The translations under genes were made by a program, and so were the position numbers. A model generated the notes under the pieces. It made no database searches. It saw only the letters and a program-made list of their open reading frames with translations, and was not told where the DNA came from. From the IMG/VR virus record IMGVR_UViG_3300042350_003801: DNA of 64,000 nucleotides; one strand, given 5' to 3'. Within the stretch, counting starts at the first letter, position 1. Every line of letters begins with the position of its first letter. The stretch is from a virus. Lineage: Duplodnaviria > Caudoviricetes. Positions 1-59,738 of this stretch are shown here, piece by piece.

Positions 1-891
1 TGTTGGTGTGATACCATCACCAGCCCTAATTGCCGAAATGCTTACCTCTCTACCTCTAGAACCTACAATACGATATTCATCAAGTCTAGGTTGAATATCA
101 ATAGAAGTTGAAGGATAGTCGGGTTGAATTTCTCTACCAGATGATGCACCAAATGCAAGACCAATCTTCTCATAATACATCTGAAGATCAGTTCTAGAAG
201 ATGTATAAGACTGGAATATATCATTAATGACTACTGGATTGACACCATCGGCATTTTCGTGGTTGGTTAGTTTATGCTGTGAGAATAACGGGGCATATCT
301 ATTTGCTGTATAATCTTTATAGACTGTTACATCCGGGTCTTCAATTGTGATTTCATTGAAGAAGTTTTGTCCAGTAAGAAGGAAAATTGAGCCGCTTTCA
401 ATTGAATCATTTTCAGGATTAGGAATATAATCGGGAATGATAATCGTCTTACGATAATCTTGACCAATAATACTAACGCCACGGGGCAAGAAAATACCAC
501 CGTGAATTGAGTTTAATTTGTATAGGGCATTATTGTTGGTGGTAATATCAAAATTGGTATTGCTATCCCATTGTGTAAAATCACTTGAGGATGTGCCGCT
601 TCTTAGCCTAAAATTGTTTGTGCCATCTGGAATCCAACCTGGGCGGTTTGTTACTCTGTGGATACCAGGAGAAAGAATGATTGTGCAACGGGCAAAACGA
701 TCGTTGTTTGGGCCAACTTGGTATGAAAATCTCACTGCTTCTGCAATAGCCCGGTTTAGATTATAAAACGGGCGAGTGGGCGAATTGCCACGATTATCAA
801 TAGTGTCTGTAGAGTCTATTGAATCTGGGTTTACATATAAACATCTTCCAGTTGTATTTGAAAGCAGTTGGCTAAGTCTTGATAACCCCAT
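1..891 (-). CDS. Large cyanophage virion structural/tail protein, N-terminal part (runs off window start)
   Basis: My translation from ATG at 891 stays open to base 1 (MGLSRLSQLLSNTTGRCLYVNPDSIDSTDTIDNRGNSPTRPF...), resembling a conserved cyanomyovirus structural protein N-terminus; late-promoter-like CTAAATA upstream. Not in the ORF track. Confidence 0.7.
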   Translation of the reverse strand, partial: MGLSRLSQLLSNTTGRCLYVNPDSIDSTDTIDNRGNSPTRPFYNLNRAIAEAVRFSYQVGPNNDRFARCTIILSPGIHRVTNRPGWIPDGTNNFRLRSGTSSSDFTQWDSNTNFDITTNNNALYKLNSIHGGIFLPRGVSIIGQDYRKTIIIPDYIPNPENDSIESGSIFLLTGQNFFNEITIEDPDVTVYKDYTANRYAPLFSQHKLTNHENADGVNPVVINDIFQSYTSSRTDLQMYYEKIGLAFGASSGREIQPDYPSTSIDIQPRLDEYRIVGSRGREVSISAIRAGDGITPT

Positions 892-998
892 TCTTAATCC
901 ACAATTATTCCTATGGATTATTTAGTCGTGTTTGATAATATTAAAAAGTAAACAACTTACTGCAAAGATTATAAAAATTTCCAGTAGCGATGAGGTCG

Positions 999-1277
999 TC
1001 ATTCTACTGGAAGTTCTTCGGGGTTTTTAATATTCATTTCAAATAGAAGTGGATGGGCTTCTTCTGAAATCAAATAATCGGACCACTTTAACATTTGTTC
1101 AGATTTTATTCCAATCTTTTGATTTGCTTCCGTAAAGATTGTTGGGTCGCTTTTTGCAATTTCTGGAAGAATGTCAAAAGAAAAGGGAATTCCTTCAATG
1201 CAATAAACCTTTACCAACTCATTTGGTGTTTTGGGAACAATAAACCACCGGTAACAGGTGGTTATAGAATATTGCAT
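999..1277 (-). CDS. Hypothetical protein
   Basis: 92-aa ORF co-oriented with neighbours, plausible composition. Confidence 0.6.
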   Translation of the reverse strand: MQYSITTCYRWFIVPKTPNELVKVYCIEGIPFSFDILPEIAKSDPTIFTEANQKIGIKSEQMLKWSDYLISEEAHPLLFEMNIKNPEELPVE

Positions 1278-1418
1278 TTTTGATGCCGCGGCTAACAGTA
1301 TTTATTCATCGTCCTTAATATGCCGACGATTCAAAAATTCCTCAACTATCGAAATTATTTAAAGACCGTTGTAGATAAAAAATGGAAAACTTAGATGAAA
1401 GGTCCAATAAAAACTTCA

Positions 1419-1516
1419 CTAAATAAAGATGCCTGGTTGGTTGGCGCTTTTCAGGTGGGGGAGAATTTCTTCTCCCCTTATAAAATAAAACTTTACTAAA
1501 TAATATTGCCAACCAA
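1419..1516 (+). promoter_or_regulatory. Dual late-promoter/antisense hairpin module upstream of tnpB
   Basis: CTAAATA 1419-1425; stem CCTG/CAGG with loop GTTGGTTGGCG; hairpin GGGGAGAA..TTCTCCCC 1457-1477; second CTAAATA 1496-1502; complement TGCCAACCAAT 1507-1517. Confidence 0.65.
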
Positions 1517-1528
1517 TAAACAGAGCAG

Positions 1529-2725
1529 ATGCATTTAAAAGCATACAAGTTCAGGATTTATCCAGATAAAGAACAAGAAGTTATATTGGCGAAGACTTTC
1601 GGTTGCTGTAGGTTTGTTTGGAACAAACTCGTTGAAAACTTCAACAGTAACTCCAAGGAATTCATAAACGAAAAAACTTTGAAAGACACTCCCGAATTTG
1701 AATTTCTTAAAGAAGTTTCTGCTGCTGCTATTCAACAAAAAAGAAATGACTTTATTGATTTCAAGAAGCAGTTTTTCAATAAGAAAAGAAAGGCCAAATT
1801 AGGACGACCTTCTTTTAAGAAAAAATCAAATCGTCAGTCTTTTAGACTTCCCAATCAGAAGTTCGTTCTAGACCAAGAAAACTCTTTAGTTAGACTTGAA
1901 AAGATTGGTTGGGTTAAAGTTGTCGTTGACCGTGAAATTCCCGAAGATGCTGACTTTAGGAACATCACTGTTTCTAAAACACCAACCGGTAAATACTTTG
2001 TTTCAATTTTAGTTAAGCAAGAACTCAATCCAATACCCTCAACCGGCAAGGTAGTAGGTATTGATTTGGGCATTAAAGACTTGTTCATTCTTTCAAACGG
2101 ACAAGCAATTAACAATCCTAAATGGTTTCGCAAGAACCAAGCGAAACTCAAAAAAGCCCAGAAGCATTTAAGTAGGAAAAAGAAGGGAAGTAATCGTTAC
2201 ATTAAGCAACGAATTAAAGTTGCTAAAGTACACGAATACATTACAAACAGTAGAACTTACTTTCTTCATAACGTGTCTACTGCTTTAGTGAACACTTTTG
2301 ACTTGATAGTTCTTGAAGATTTAAACGTTTCTGGAATGCTGAAGAACCGCAAGTTGTCTAAATCAATCTCGGATGCTTCTTGGTCTACTTTTGTGTCTAT
2401 GCTGGAATACAAGTGTAACTGGTATGGAAAATTGTTGGTTAAAATTAACCGTTTCTTTCCGTCAAGTAAGACTTGTAGTTCTTGTGGTTACAAGAAAGAC
2501 AAAATGCCTCTTTCGGTTAGAGAATGGACTTGTCCATCTTGTGGTTGTCAACACGATAGAGACTTGAATGCCTCTATTAATATTTTAAAGGAAGGTTGGA
2601 GAAATCTAACCGACCGAGAACTTTCATCGGCGGAGTACGTCGATTACGGACGTGGAGCGGAATTAAGACTGAATGGTAATTCACATCATTTAGCATCTGC
2701 TATGAAGCGTCTAGAGAACCAATAG
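1529..2725 (+). CDS. tnpB: RNA-guided endonuclease TnpB (OrfB)
   Basis: N-terminal KAYKFRIYP HTH, RuvC-I GIDLG, RuvC-II IVLEDL, Zn finger CSSC..CPSC, RuvC-III DRDLNASINI; all catalytic acidic residues present. Confidence 0.95.
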   Translation: MHLKAYKFRIYPDKEQEVILAKTFGCCRFVWNKLVENFNSNSKEFINEKTLKDTPEFEFLKEVSAAAIQQKRNDFIDFKKQFFNKKRKAKLGRPSFKKKSNRQSFRLPNQKFVLDQENSLVRLEKIGWVKVVVDREIPEDADFRNITVSKTPTGKYFVSILVKQELNPIPSTGKVVGIDLGIKDLFILSNGQAINNPKWFRKNQAKLKKAQKHLSRKKKGSNRYIKQRIKVAKVHEYITNSRTYFLHNVSTALVNTFDLIVLEDLNVSGMLKNRKLSKSISDASWSTFVSMLEYKCNWYGKLLVKINRFFPSSKTCSSCGYKKDKMPLSVREWTCPSCGCQHDRDLNASINILKEGWRNLTDRELSSAEYVDYGRGAELRLNGNSHHLASAMKRLENQ

Positions 2726-2774
2726 AGTTTTTTGACTTTATTAGTTTTTATTACTATTTAACTGGTTCGGGAAT
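2626..2774 (+). ncRNA. TnpB omegaRNA (reRNA) scaffold plus predicted 20-nt guide (2755-2774, TATTTAACTGGTTCGGGAAT)
   Basis: Overlaps the tnpB 3' end as is typical for omegaRNAs; stems ATCGGCG/CGTCGAT and AATAGAGTT/GACTTTATT; conserved with the copy at 34635-34793 up to TTAC(TAT); true 5' end probably further upstream. Confidence 0.75.
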
Positions 2775-2960
2775 GATAGAATTAGAAAGAATGGCTTCAA
2801 GAACATCATTAATCTTAGAAACCAGTAGAAACATTAAATGCAATGGAAGAAGAATAATAATTCTAAGAATCAGATAATGGTAGCGAATATGAATAGTGTA
2901 GCCGGGAAATTTTTGATACTTTGCTTTCATCTTGTTGTCAATGAACTTAAAGGGATTCAT
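2754..2960 (-). CDS. Small hypothetical membrane protein; stop codon supplied by the TnpB element end
   Basis: 68 aa with hydrophobic stretch; TAG at 2754-2756 straddles the element junction. Confidence 0.6.
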   Translation of the reverse strand: MNPFKFIDNKMKAKYQKFPGYTIHIRYHYLILRIIILLPLHLMFLLVSKINDVLEAILSNSIIPEPVK

Positions 2961-3409
2961 AGTTCCGCTCCACCATATGAATGCAATTGGGGGAGCTTAG
3001 CACTTTCCACAACTTGCCTTAGCCGAAACCTAGTTGCGCGGTCTGGTAGTTTATTTCCATATGCCTGCTCACATTCTTTCTCGTGGTTAAGAAAATTAAC
3101 TAGCATTTCCCACCTTTCTGTGTATGGTTCTAAAAAGATAAGCTCATTAGTGGCGTCTTCTATGCGGTAAGACTTATGAAAAGACCCATATGCGAATGGA
3201 AAATTACTAGCCCAAAGTCTCAAGTCTCCTAGAATTATTGTATAATCACTTTCAATGACAAGCTCGGTATTCGGATCATCTAGAAGTTGATTTATTTTTT
3301 TAGACAATGCTTTAGAAGTTTTATAATTACTAATATAGGCGTTGGGATTGATCCAGTAGAAAAATTTCTCCATTTTGCTGGATTTGATGGTGATGTCGGA
3401 GATTTTCAT
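2957..3409 (-). CDS. Hypothetical protein
   Basis: 150-aa ORF, overlapping start/stop with neighbours. Confidence 0.7.
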   Translation of the reverse strand: MKISDITIKSSKMEKFFYWINPNAYISNYKTSKALSKKINQLLDDPNTELVIESDYTIILGDLRLWASNFPFAYGSFHKSYRIEDATNELIFLEPYTERWEMLVNFLNHEKECEQAYGNKLPDRATRFRLRQVVESAKLPQLHSYGGAEL

Positions 3410-3648
3410 TAGAGTCCTAGTAAATGAGCAAGAGCTGTTTCAGTTTTTAAAATGACAGTCTTATAATATATGAGCCTATTAATAAGACTTTCCTGGTTAG
3501 CTACATATTCTCCACCGTGATTTGTCATTTTTAGATAACGGGTTCCATCTGGTTTTTCCATTACCCAGGCCGTTCCATCACATTCCTATTCGTGCCATAG
3601 GACTGGAAATGTGAAGATGATCTTATCTTCGTCTAGGGTTTGGTTCAT
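3409..3648 (-). pseudogene. Small ORF with one internal TAG (codon 21)
   Basis: MNQTLDEDKIIFTFPVLWHE*ECDGTAWVMEKPDGTRYLKMTNHGG...LLGL*; TAG at 3586-3588, one base from TGG. Confidence 0.55.
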
Positions 3649-4241: not shown

Positions 4242-5615
4242 TCAGAATGTGACCCTGCTCCTGACGGTTTCAAAGTCTACAAGATTGTGCAACTGTCCAT
4301 TTTCAAAGACAGTTTGAAGAGCGATCGGATAATCCAATGCACCTTCAATATCTGTTACAAAACCATTTTCGGTCTTATAAAGAGTTACACGACCCTTCTT
4401 GGATTCCTTACCGAAATCTGTGATTGGTTGCTTGTAAACATCTCGCCATTCACCATTGACCTTGGCTGCAGAGCATTTCATTGCAAACTTCAAGGTATCC
4501 CTATCCACTTGCTGAAGAAGTCCACCACCTTGACCGAAGGTAATATTATCTGCCGAGAAACCAGCAGTGGTTGCACGATAGAGAATTCGGTCAATTGTTG
4601 CCTGATTGATACCGTCGCCTTGAATAACACTAACATTGTTAAGAACCTTATAGCCCTTATCGTTGATAGTATGCCCGAAGTGTTCGTCAAGAATTCGCAG
4701 ACATTCTGCTACAACTTGTGGAGAGTCGCCGCTGTCTGGTCGAATTCCGACGACTGCACCAGAATTGATAACTTCATCTTTCAACTCTGTTCCCCAGAGT
4801 TTACTACAGGCATCATAGATGTTGTAACTATCGCTAACAACTGCTAGAACTGCTCCAGGTTTACCGAAGAGTTTTAGCATATTGCGATAAGCCTCAACCT
4901 CGTTTTCTCGGCCCCAAGATACCATCGAGCTGTGTTCACTAGCCGGGATAGAGAATCCTGCCATCTTGGCATCATAATACTTTCTTGCATAAAGAAGGGC
5001 TGCTACAGTATCAGTTCCTTTGAAGTTGACAAGATGGGCTGCCCCACCAATGCCAGCAGATTCATAAGAAGAGACACCTCGAAATCCGAAATCTTGCAGC
5101 TTGAAATCAATCAAATCTGGATTACCCGTTTTATGAAGATACTCTAGGATGATTCTCTTACTGGTGTAAGAATTCGTGCAGACTGTCGTTGGATACCATA
5201 CCGCTCGGAGCAATGCCGTCTCCAAGAAAGAACTTAACCACCAGCACTTGGGGTCAGTTGGTTCAATCGTAACAAGAACATTCTTCGTTGGAACAACTGT
5301 TCCTTCTGGAACTGCCTTGATTATAACTGGAAGCCAGCCATTATGCTCTTTGAGAATGTATTCCCAAAGTTCACGGTAGAATGGTTCACCGTGAGCCGTG
5401 ATAATCTCTTCTGCAACATCAATGTCTTCTTGTGTGATCGGTTTGGACATATATTCCTTGAGGAACATCTGTAAACCAAAGAACACAGTTTCATCCCATT
5501 TACCACCTCTACTCTCAATGTAAGAGTAGACGCTTTCAGTTCCAGGAGGATACTGATAAGGTTGGGAATACTTGTAGGAATCAGCGTTGAGAATTAGATT
5601 TTTAAAAAGGTCCAT
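4242..5615 (-). CDS. nadV: Nicotinamide phosphoribosyltransferase (NAMPT)
   Basis: NADSYKYSQ, DFGFRG, IPASEHS, VVSDSY, IRPDSG, IQGDGI, FGQGGGLLQ motifs. Confidence 0.95.
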   Translation of the reverse strand: MDLFKNLILNADSYKYSQPYQYPPGTESVYSYIESRGGKWDETVFFGLQMFLKEYMSKPITQEDIDVAEEIITAHGEPFYRELWEYILKEHNGWLPVIIKAVPEGTVVPTKNVLVTIEPTDPKCWWLSSFLETALLRAVWYPTTVCTNSYTSKRIILEYLHKTGNPDLIDFKLQDFGFRGVSSYESAGIGGAAHLVNFKGTDTVAALLYARKYYDAKMAGFSIPASEHSSMVSWGRENEVEAYRNMLKLFGKPGAVLAVVSDSYNIYDACSKLWGTELKDEVINSGAVVGIRPDSGDSPQVVAECLRILDEHFGHTINDKGYKVLNNVSVIQGDGINQATIDRILYRATTAGFSADNITFGQGGGLLQQVDRDTLKFAMKCSAAKVNGEWRDVYKQPITDFGKESKKGRVTLYKTENGFVTDIEGALDYPIALQTVFENGQLHNLVDFETVRSRVTF

Positions 5616-35802: not shown

Positions 35803-37574
35803 TTTTGGGTTTCAATATCGGAGATTCTTTTTCTTAGGGTGTCTATTTGTCTCTGCTTGCTTTCATCTTCAGCAGCTTTTCTCTGTGCATCTGCGCTCTG
35901 CTGAAGTTTCTCTTGGTTACTTTGTCGCTGCTGTTCTTGTTCTGCGGCGATTTGTTCTCTTTTTTCTACAGAGTTTTGAGCAGAGGTTGAACGAATAACC
36001 CGTCTGCGTGTTTCTATGTTTGAATTATCTTCGCAAAATTGTTGAAAGGTTTTCATCCTACTTTTTAAATTAGAACTATTTAGAGGTCAAAAATCTTTCC
36101 AGCCGCAGATTGCTTATAGAACTCCAATTCTTGTCTCAGTTTTTCGTTCTCGGAAAGCAAAGAAGTAACATTTGCATTTACTCGTTCTGATTCAGTGAGA
36201 TTGTTGCGAAAAACATCAAGAGCAGTTTTAAATTTGGTAACAAACATTTCAATTGCGGGTGAGAGGGTGTGAATCGTCTGCACCATCCAATGACTTGACG
36301 AATAGTTCGGCGAACTTTTGCATTCGTTCAGGAATGACGCTAGATGGTTGCTCGCTGATTGCCTTGCGAAGACTATCCATCTCTTTCCATTCTTCTATTG
36401 TCATTGGTTCGGTTGCATTCATTTTTTATTTAGAGTTTAGTGAAGTTTACAGAGTAGTTTTCGTTTTCTTTAGATTTAAAGAATAGTTGCTGGGTTACAT
36501 TATCCCAACCAAAGGTATTCGGTTGTAGGTCATCAAGAAACTCATCGAGAGTTAACTTATCAGTTTCTCGTCTGTAGAACCAAATAGTGAAACTATCGGG
36601 CTCTTCTTCGGTTTCAATGAATTTCGTTGAAAGTTTTTTTGTAATTTCAAAGAAACCTTCAAAGGGTTGTTGAGTCTCCGCCATTGTCAATCTTTTTAAG
36701 AAGGGTTTCTTGAAGGGTTTTTAGGGCCTCGTATTGTTGGTCAACTACAGAGATATTCTCAATAGAAACAAGAATTTCACCTATTAGACGAATCACTACA
36801 GGCTTTTCAGTTCTAGATGCAAAACTTAGTGCATTGCGAATATGTGAGGCGGCTTCACTAAGTTCTTCTTGCACTCTTTCAGAAATTTGGTTCATTGTTG
36901 GTTTTGCAGGGTTTTGAGTTTAGGATAAATCGTTTCAGCTAGATGATACCGGCCACTATCAAAACTATCATACCAGCCAGCCTCTCTGTTGGAAAGAATT
37001 TCTTCTAGTTCTTTTAGAATAGAATCAAGCATTTCCGGCGGGTTGGGTAGAGATGGAGTTGGGCCGTAATCTGTGATAAGAGACGCTGTTCCAAAAGTCT
37101 CTTTCATATAAACTGGATCTCGGTCTGTTTTTGCCATTGTTTTAGTGAGTTGTGTCTCTGGTAATAGTTGGATAAATTGGTTCAATTTTACTTATGTTGC
37201 ACCAATCTGGTTTTTCCTTAAAGGTGCTACAAAGTTTTTGTTGCTCAGTTTGAGTTTTTGTGGTAAGTTGCCTATGAATGCAGGGAATGAAGACAACTCC
37301 ACAAACTATAGTTGCGGTGATTACATCAATCATCCGCCGAAACAAAACGTTGTGGATGTTGAGTAATTACAGAGTTCCAAACTTCTGGAAACTGCAAGTC
37401 AACTCGCTCAATAGAATATTCTAGAAAGGCAATTGCTGCATCTAATGCTACATCTGGATTTTCAGATTTTTCACGAGTATAATAGAGCATCTGTTTAACG
37501 TGTTCAAAGTTAAACAGAAGTTGTTCCATTTCACTTAATGAATCAAAAGAAGAAATGTAATGTGCGTCAAACAT
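35799..37574 (-). other. Cluster of small hypothetical ORFs (35799-36056, 36080-36286, 36430-36690, 36659-36895, 36892-37185, 37142-37345, 37326-37574)
   Basis: Tightly packed co-oriented ORFs; no recognisable motifs. Confidence 0.65.
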
Positions 37575-59640: not shown

Positions 59641-59738
59641 CTCCTTTATTAAGTTCGCATTTCTATTTATAAAAATGGGGAGGTTGAACCTCCCCGGAGC
59701 CTTAAAGGTGCGAACTTAATAAGGCATCTCTATTTATA
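59641..59738 (-). promoter_or_regulatory. Dual late-promoter/antisense hairpin module upstream of the endonuclease
   Basis: TATAAATA 59731-59738; stem GCCTT/AAGGC with loop; terminator GGGGAGG-TTCAA-CCTCCCC-ATTTTT (59672-59695); TATAAATA 59664-59671; 14-nt perfect complement 59709-59722 versus 59646-59659. Confidence 0.75.

Follow-up and report, generated by a model that had tools for sequence, protein, structure and literature searches.

The TnpB nuclease gene near the start of this viral sequence raises a question about how it is expressed: why is its start codon preceded by two late-promoter motifs, a stem-loop and a GC-rich hairpin, and why does the same arrangement recur upstream of an unrelated endonuclease gene in the same DNA? 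The window, here and below, is the whole stretch of DNA that was analyzed, 64,000 nucleotides in length. The best explanation is that positions 1398-1528 form a portable RNA "lock" for the mobile-nuclease genes of freshwater T4-like cyanophages. From its sequence, the host phage appears to be an uncultured lake relative of the T4-like cyanophages, because several studies of lake water yielded metagenomes with DNA near-identical to the TnpB region and because the best isolate matches of the nicotinamide phosphoribosyltransferase gene of the window (4242-5615, minus strand) are Synechococcus phages B3 and B23 (64.5% at the amino acid level).

The cassette and the TnpB element

A reading of positions 1381-1560 recovers, letter for letter, every cassette element of the original prediction (Table 1). 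Directly after the first late-promoter motif, P1, the sequence AAGATGCCTG-GTTGGTTGGCGCTTTT-CAGGT spans 1426-1456, with AAGAT separating P1 from the GCCUGG strand of a local stem-loop, S1. The 5′ strand of S1 and the 5′ part of its loop together make up the 5′ arm (1430-1446), which is complementary to the tnpB leader. The GC-rich hairpin that follows is, on sequence grounds, homologous to the terminator hairpin found in the cassettes of endonuclease genes. The tnpB leader forms the 3′ arm, in which the partners of the 5′ arm are U-GCCAACCAA-U, CAG and GCA, in this order; a conserved AGAGCAG lies immediately 5′ of the AUG, and the Shine-Dalgarno-like motif of this leader is weak. Rfam holds no family for the cassette region (the best sub-threshold hit, uxuA, scores 17 bits where the gathering score is 66.8), and a megablast search of the region against isolate phages gave no match.

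Table 1 Coordinates of the TnpB element, the sister cassette and the half-cassettes. Half-cassettes lie in other phage loci, named by locus number.
Feature	Coordinates	Strand	Details
Outermost left-end segment of TnpB element, AAAGGTCCAATAAAAACTTCA	1398..1418	+	From comparison of upstream regions; boundary approximate
P1, late-promoter motif CTAAATA	1419-1425	+	Predicted +1 is G1431
Stem-loop S1	1431..1456	+	GCCUGG (1431-1436) pairs with UCAGGU (1451-1456); 14-nt loop; from fold of 1431-1482
GC-rich hairpin GGGGGAGAA/TTCTCCCC (3′ strand also UUCUCCCCU)	1457-1478	+	9 bp, 1457-1465 with 1470-1478
A-rich spacer, 17 nt	1479..1495	+	Specific to the TnpB-linked variant
P2, second late-promoter motif CTAAATA	1496-1502	+	Between the two arms; predicted +1 is G1508
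tnpB 5′ leader (3′ arm)	1507..1528	+	21-nt leader; ATATTGCCAACCAATAAACAGAGCAG, then ATG at 1529
tnpB ORF, 398 aa	1529..2725	+	Pfam OrfB_IS605, Cas12f1-like_TNB, HTH_OrfB_IS605
Conserved 3′ end of tnpB and 32-nt tail ending TTACTAT	2590..2757	+	Predicted structured; flanks diverge beyond
Sister cassette	59738-59640	-	Two TATAAATA (59738-59731, 59671-59664), stem-loop, arm, hairpin, leader
PD-(D/E)xK endonuclease ORF, 140 aa	59215..59637	-	Pfam PDDEXK_5, E 3.3e-36
Half-cassettes	L177:4085-4146, L186:3678-3739, L236:6202-6263, L158:7553-7658, L233:1904-1980, L197:4395-4478

The cyanomyovirus late promoter is NATAAATA and the T4 late promoter is TATAAATA (PMC2984593). Within the window, 20 of the 22 CTAAATA motifs lie on the gene strand, where they look from sequence like late-promoter sites belonging to the phage itself; the plus strand has just two, both in the tnpB cassette. 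According to the T4 late-promoter spacing rule, transcription starts about six bases after the motif. By this rule we infer that the P1 transcript would begin on the first paired purine of the 5′ arm, and that of P2 at G1508, the first base of the 3′ arm. As both predicted starts fall on the first bases of the arms, the predicted P1 and P2 RNAs would be complementary end to end.

The pairing between loop and leader comprises nine Watson-Crick and two G-U pairs, exactly as had been claimed. Shuffling this single tnpB leader gave at least nine Watson-Crick pairs in 158 of 20,000 cases. RNAduplex lengthens the helix past a 3-nt internal loop and a bulged A to 16 pairs (-22.1 kcal/mol), so that it runs from the first base of the leader to 3 nt before the AUG, covers AGAGCAG and would mask the start region. 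In the fold of a read-through RNA (1426-1545; -37.6 kcal/mol, z -4.2) the arms are likewise paired. On its own, the predicted P1 RNA (1431-1482, 52 nt) gives a fold of two well-defined hairpins, one of which displays the arm in its loop, and the first 15 nt of the leader alone are unstructured.

The gene behind this leader encodes a protein that matches the ISDra2 TnpB structures 8EXA/8H1J (E 3e-74) and, aligned to ISDra2-type TnpB, keeps GIDLG, LEDLN, HDRDLN and CSSCG...CPSCG, leaving the RuvC D-E-D triad and the zinc-finger motifs intact. When the upstream region of the window copy is compared with those of loci L116, L118, L120, L121, L123, L130 and L134, the TnpB loci are alike from about 1398 on, while the flanks further upstream are unrelated. 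Downstream, the likeness ends after TTACTAT, 32 nt past the stop codon, and the flanks beyond are again unrelated; the last letters are TTACTAT in eight loci and TTACTAC in L122. Because the flanks are unrelated beyond both ends, 1398-2757 is, as judged from these sequences, a mobile TnpB-only element with the cassette as its left end. This 1.36-kb element is filled by tnpB and contains no tnpA, and its right end has no hairpin resembling that of the left-end cassette. Searches for an exact empty site and for relatives of a neighboring 150-aa ORF found neither (over 700-3500, the lake-metagenome contigs were short and made a single weak joint, one side of which has 24 nt; none was usable), so the ends of the element are those given by the comparison of TnpB loci.

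Within the element, 2590-2757 is more conserved than the rest of tnpB and has several predicted stems, in which only 5 pairs co-vary. This segment is probably the omega-RNA scaffold together with the right end, an assignment in which we presume that the general features of the IS200/IS605 family hold here; the guide would then be the flank that begins near 2758. The gene tnpB is antisense to all neighboring genes in the window. Far from the element, at 36433 on the minus strand, AAACTTCACTAAA matches the TnpB left end over 13 nt directly before a CTAAATA, which may reflect chance or a related promoter context.

Homologous copies and co-varying arms

The sister cassette precedes a PD-(D/E)xK endonuclease ORF, which it is predicted to control. 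Its stem is CCUUA/UAAGG, its hairpin GGGGAGG/CCUCCCC is followed by AUUUUU, and its arm and leader form a perfect 14-nt match that ends at the AAGGAG of the endonuclease gene. The features ascribed to both modules by the original prediction are real, except that the "AGA" of AGATGCC varies across the family: the conserved start of the cassette is T-(G/A)-C-C, four bases after TAAATA. Across the window, AGATGCC...GGGGAG occurs only at 1427 and at 59729 (minus strand), with 0 expected in shuffles; GGGGAG..CTCCCC is confined to the same two places; and a covariance model run over the 64 kb finds two copies only (E 4.6e-14 and 7.1e-13, the sister match covering 59725-59636 on the minus strand). 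With GTTCGCACCTTT common to the loops of the L121 TnpB and PD-(D/E)xK copies, the two modules of the window are homologous copies of one cassette, as proposed. The motif TATAAATA is present twice only in the 64 kb, both times in the PD-(D/E)xK cassette. From its sequence, the endonuclease cassette may have been imported more recently than the TnpB cassette.

The surroundings of the sister cassette include a tRNA-like gene (60041-59757, minus strand) with acceptor strands GGGAACG/CGUUCUC and a T arm GCGUG-UUCGAGU-CACGC, possibly of Arg-UCU identity, at which ARAGORN makes no tRNA call. A group I intron (60014-59814; 66 bits to Rfam RF00028) splits its anticodon loop, and an I-Ssp6803I-family PD-(D/E)xK gene lies just 3′ of the tRNA, outside the intron.

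TnpB relatives were collected from IMG/VR and metagenomes, and the counts given here cover the matches listed and are lower bounds. All nine listed TnpB loci with 80-91% amino acid identity carry the cassette, namely the eight of the left-end comparison, window copy included, and L257, the one further cassette-bearing locus that a scan of metagenome TnpB genes added among the matches listed. The cassette is absent at 63 of 63 listed metagenome loci whose TnpB has at most 60% identity, the IMG/VR relatives at 35-56% identity give no covariance-model match among those listed, and the distant phage TnpB genes at L262:1350-1515 and L124-L140 (35-60% identity) are without it. At L262 a single ACTAAATA stands about 27 nt before the ATG. 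The nine cassettes contain seven different arm sequences, each leader carrying the matching changes, and their S1 stems and GC hairpins vary in sequence with pairing retained. When the duplex energies of all arms and leaders are compared (9 x 9), each arm pairs most strongly with its own leader and each leader with its own arm, at -19 to -24 kcal/mol versus -6 to -20 kcal/mol for non-cognate pairs. Among the loci listed, these sequences suggest that the cassette was taken up as left end in one young TnpB lineage only, whose arms appear to have kept co-evolving since the capture.

The two classes of cassette differ in what follows the hairpin. In all TnpB copies it is followed by an A-rich spacer of 14-18 nt and no U tract, whereas the GC hairpin of endonuclease copies runs into UUUCUUGU or UUUUCCUGU and adjoins P2, and the median gap from hairpin to P2 is 15.5 nt in the former versus 3 nt in the latter. 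The hairpin and U tract of the endonuclease copies make a credible intrinsic terminator by sequence. Since the spacer and P2 of the TnpB copies resemble the context of P1 (AAAACTT(C/T)ACTAAATAA), a local duplication is suggested as their origin.

Beyond TnpB, the cassette is spread widely among phages. A pattern built on conserved positions was used to search IMG/VR, and 85 of the 100 distinct matches listed had 8-17 contiguous Watson-Crick pairs between arm and leader. The same pattern gave 3 hits with at least 8 arm pairs out of 119 in bacterial and archaeal genomes, a chance-like yield, and for this reason the complementarity is no by-product of the pattern. (The pattern first used for collection, AGATGCC...GGGGAG...CTCCCC, was too loose and was rejected; its 115 loci are unrelated terminators.) The covariance model, built without the P1 region and without S1, has at least 141 matches in phage loci that hold cassette or TnpB hits. 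All 20 distinct copies found by the model only have an NTAAATA upstream of the arm, in nearly all of them at a spacing of four nt; because these copies were found without the use of P1 and still have the motif at the expected spacing, P1 is by sequence an integral part of the cassette. Similarly, the predicted promoter P2 lies between the arms in every copy, with CTAAATA alternating with (T/C)ATAAATA among the homologues.

Among the matches listed, nearly every cassette precedes a gene for a GIY-YIG, HNH or other homing endonuclease, in a census limited to copies that match the pattern or lie near such copies. The 81 distinct downstream ORFs of at least 100 aa in the matches listed were classified with PHROGs and Pfam: 54 belong to PHROG 314 "homing endonuclease", others to HNH families, seven are TnpB and one is PDDEXK_5, and NUMOD3 is present in 35. 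A further 21 of the 81 fall into two unannotated PHROGs with a GIY-YIG-like N-terminus (YxYAYLREDxxPYYIGKG), some of them with NUMOD3. The proposal of a portable cassette tied to mobile nucleases is thus upheld by downstream ORFs of homing-endonuclease, HNH, TnpB, PD-(D/E)xK and GIY-YIG-like families. Homologues without loop/leader complementarity, or without nuclease association, would speak against such a cassette, and checking homologues led to neither result. In the isolate Synechococcus phage S-SRM01 (NC_070963.1; L322-L330), the covariance model finds six cassettes, preceding gp030, gp066, gp075, gp091, gp114 and gp297 and co-oriented, together with their endonuclease genes, with the neighboring genes. 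Of the genes behind these six cassettes, four have endonuclease or NUMOD3 annotations; gp091 ("hypothetical") and gp114 ("translation initiation factor 2", a doubtful annotation) are probably unrecognized homing endonucleases. At six places (Table 1) half-cassettes are seen, with P1, stem-loop and hairpin and with no matching leader or nuclease ORF; these may be remnants after gene loss or stand-alone small-RNA units.

The arms co-vary across the family. Pairs were counted on model-based alignments, which lean towards structure, because MAFFT alignments of the leaders were not register-consistent for the outer helix. On such an alignment of 67 distinct copies, 88% of the cells of the arm/leader helix are paired and compensatory changes are seen at each of the 17 pairs. 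Double-change cells number 224, versus 57.5 in shuffles, and none of 500 shuffles reached the observed number. Sliding the partner columns, as a control, brings pairing down to 32-46%. The arm start T(G/A)CC and the AGAG(C/U)AG directly 5′ of the start codon co-vary, and the mean cognate duplex is -23.4 kcal/mol versus -10.6 kcal/mol for non-cognate ones. G-U pairs are frequent in the sense orientation, G6-U125 being the commonest state at its position, and it is this that points to pairing in the coding-strand RNA rather than to a DNA cruciform. In 117 distinct copies, pairing in S1 amounts to 92-93% and double-change cells number 13 and 6, the sequence conservation of this stem-loop being partly imposed by the search pattern. 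Matches found by the model only show three-way changes, such as UGUCUGU/ACAGACA with the leader changing accordingly.

The claim that loop and leader change together is therefore strongly borne out, both by the compensatory changes in 67 copies and by the cognate-best duplexes of the TnpB copies. The claim of gene-specific control is not, as the same arm class can stand before several endonuclease families that are unrelated to one another; TGGTGGTT, with 22 of 84 copies, is an example. The arms look like the product of neutral drift with compensation. Cassettes that reside together have different arms, and duplex energies of -16 kcal/mol or below are found for 1 of 38 of their ordered pairs versus 12% of random pairs, a comparison biased by ascertainment in that second copies in a locus are by construction those that the first pattern missed.

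Models for the action of the cassette

A translational lock based on pairing is the best explanation of these data, and we consider it reasonably probable. An RNA that contains both the 5′ arm (1430-1446) and the tnpB leader (1507-1527) would form the long-range helix, hiding the leader, its weak AGAG ribosome-binding motif included, to within 3 nt of the AUG, and TnpB would not be translated from it. Such arm-containing RNAs could come from the upstream late promoter P1 or from further upstream. In contrast, RNA from P2 would begin at the first base of the 3′ arm, lack the 5′ arm and keep its leader open, to be translated late in infection. That both motifs fire, where the transcripts start and end, and that pairing blocks translation are all parts of the model that we infer. 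P1 transcripts of the TnpB variant would probably read through, because its hairpin has no U tract, and be locked in cis, with action in trans possible and secondary. The purpose of P1 is puzzling in a pure cis model: tnpB opposes all its neighbors, which leaves P1 as the sole visible source of arm-containing RNA here and, apart from P1's own, no obvious upstream transcription to silence. S1 and the terminator of the endonuclease copies are likewise unneeded for a cis lock and better fit a separate small RNA.

A small RNA acting in trans is a serious rival, which we regard as possible though tentative. In it, a P1 RNA of about 50 nt, made up of S1 and the hairpin, would repress the P2 mRNA as an antisense; the free 5′ end of the mRNA would first pair with the loop, the helix would then extend down the 5′ side of the stem, and nuclease translation would be held low at a fixed ratio of small RNA to mRNA, like IS10 RNA-OUT/RNA-IN or a type I antitoxin. 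It alone explains the good conservation of P1, S1 and the terminator of the endonuclease copies. P1 is invariant, and transcription from it is predicted to begin exactly where the complementary segment does; S1 is conserved and shows some compensatory change, even though its 3′ strand is dispensable for a cis lock; and the endonuclease copies place the GC hairpin and UUUCUUGU, a plausible terminator, directly before P2. The two clean hairpins predicted for the P1 RNA, with the arm exposed in a loop, suit such a role, as do the position of P1 as the only visible source of arm-containing RNA in the window, the existence of half-cassettes without a cognate leader and the rare cross-pairing of co-resident cassettes, this last point being weak and ascertainment-biased. 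The P1 small RNA is, however, known here as a prediction from sequence, and it would share promoter class and timing with its target. The arm classes common to many unrelated genes would limit its specificity. Because the hairpin of the TnpB copies gives way to an A-rich spacer instead of a U tract, termination there is doubtful and a terminated small RNA appears the weaker reading for them. A joint reading strikes us as doubtful: nuclease and antisense RNA would form a self-contained pair, the P1 RNA of about 50 nt would titrate the mRNA in trans, arms would diversify so that co-resident cassettes stay orthogonal, and TnpB would be spreading through phage genomes as an RNA-guided homing endonuclease under small-RNA control. 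In the same doubtful reading, a TnpB lineage would have swapped its left end for the cassette, and locked P1 read-through would supply omega-RNA without protein.

It is improbable that the helix serves in RNA processing or stability, or as a transcriptional insulator, with no translational control as such. In the processing version RNase III would cut the arm/leader duplex, which at 16-20 bp is of sufficient length, and a terminator followed by a promoter would make the insert transcriptionally self-contained, the hairpin and promoters of the insulator version stopping and restarting late transcription. However, the T4 precedent is translational (PMC2988022), and the pairing always ends at the translation start region, including the conserved AGAG(C/U)AG, a position that a mere processing site has no need of. 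Very improbable, and rejected here, is a purely DNA-level role in which the hairpin and inverted repeat are the signals of an IS200/IS605 left end, namely the hairpin bound by TnpA and the cleavage guide. The cassette is indeed the left end of a TnpB element with a conserved right end (TTACTAT), and the ends of IS200/IS605 elements typically carry hairpins. Yet the same cassette stands before more than 100 endonuclease genes that are not IS genes, G-U pairs are tolerated in the sense orientation only, the right end is without a similar hairpin and the 1.36-kb element is without tnpA.

Comparison with known regulatory systems

Homing endonucleases and TnpB are unrelated nucleases, and one TnpB lineage uses an expression cassette of homing endonucleases as its entire left end. 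Bacterial TnpB behaves like a programmable homing endonuclease. The cassette adds independent genomic evidence that phage TnpB occupies the homing-endonuclease niche, with the same need for low and late expression. As a module of about 100 nt whose arms are free to change if matched, it would be a natural re-addressable translational lock, and the six copies in the culturable phage S-SRM01 make the choice between a cis lock and a small RNA directly testable.

Two transposon systems bear on this choice. In IS10, the loop of the small RNA-OUT stem-loop binds the transposase mRNA (RNA-IN) at its very 5′ terminus and covers its ribosome-binding site, and the pairing geometry matches that predicted for the P1 RNA and P2 mRNA; RNA-OUT is a true cis-antisense transcript, whereas the P1 small RNA is only predicted. 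In IS200, a stem-loop in the tnpA leader hides the Shine-Dalgarno sequence and an antisense small RNA, art200, also acts (PMC4513863). In IS200 and, by prediction, in the TnpB element, a member of the IS200/IS605 family limits translation of its own gene through mRNA structure at the left end and through RNA complementary to the leader, which is a small RNA in IS200 and the upstream arm in the TnpB element. The two differ in that IS200 controls tnpA and the present element tnpB, in the lack of any sequence relationship and in the promoters, which in the cassette are (predicted) phage late promoters. As expected of an antisense regulator, the cassette arm is complementary to the translation start region of its target; unlike art200, which is encoded on the opposite strand, it lies upstream on the same strand and is thus not a cis-antisense.

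An earlier sighting of the cassette or of a close relative is very likely to be found in the work of Dassa et al. (2009), as compared by description only. These authors described RNA hairpins in the leaders of 15 of 16 free-standing endonuclease genes at "fractured gene" loci from ocean and lake metagenomes, with TATAAATA in ten and two conserved motifs, usually complementary, on the stem (PMC2677866). Their description is without the upstream promoter, the local stem, the terminator or the link to TnpB.

The closest mechanism is that of the T4 family, in which long transcripts have their ribosome-binding site buried in a helix and late transcription, from a promoter within that helix, gives an open, translatable mRNA, as in I-TevI, I-TevII, I-TevIII, segB and Aeh1 mobE and also in T4 e, soc and 49 (PMC2988022). 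Both systems have an RNA helix that masks, or in the cassette is predicted to mask, the translation start of a nuclease, both have a TATAAATA-type late-promoter motif inside that helix, from which late transcripts of the cassette would likewise lack the 5′ arm, and both belong to mobile nuclease genes of T4-like phages. In contrast to the tight hairpin of the T4-type arms, those of the cassette are about 60 nt apart, with a GC hairpin between them that in endonuclease copies is a credible terminator; another late-promoter motif is placed 5 nt before the 5′ arm, and this arm is presented in its own conserved stem-loop. The cassette, moreover, is one homologous sequence family across many unrelated genes, now including TnpB. 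As such, the core logic of the lock is already known as the T4 mechanism (PMC2988022), which the original prediction did not name, and what is new is that the lock is linked to TnpB and that it has a constant upstream promoter motif and a local stem.
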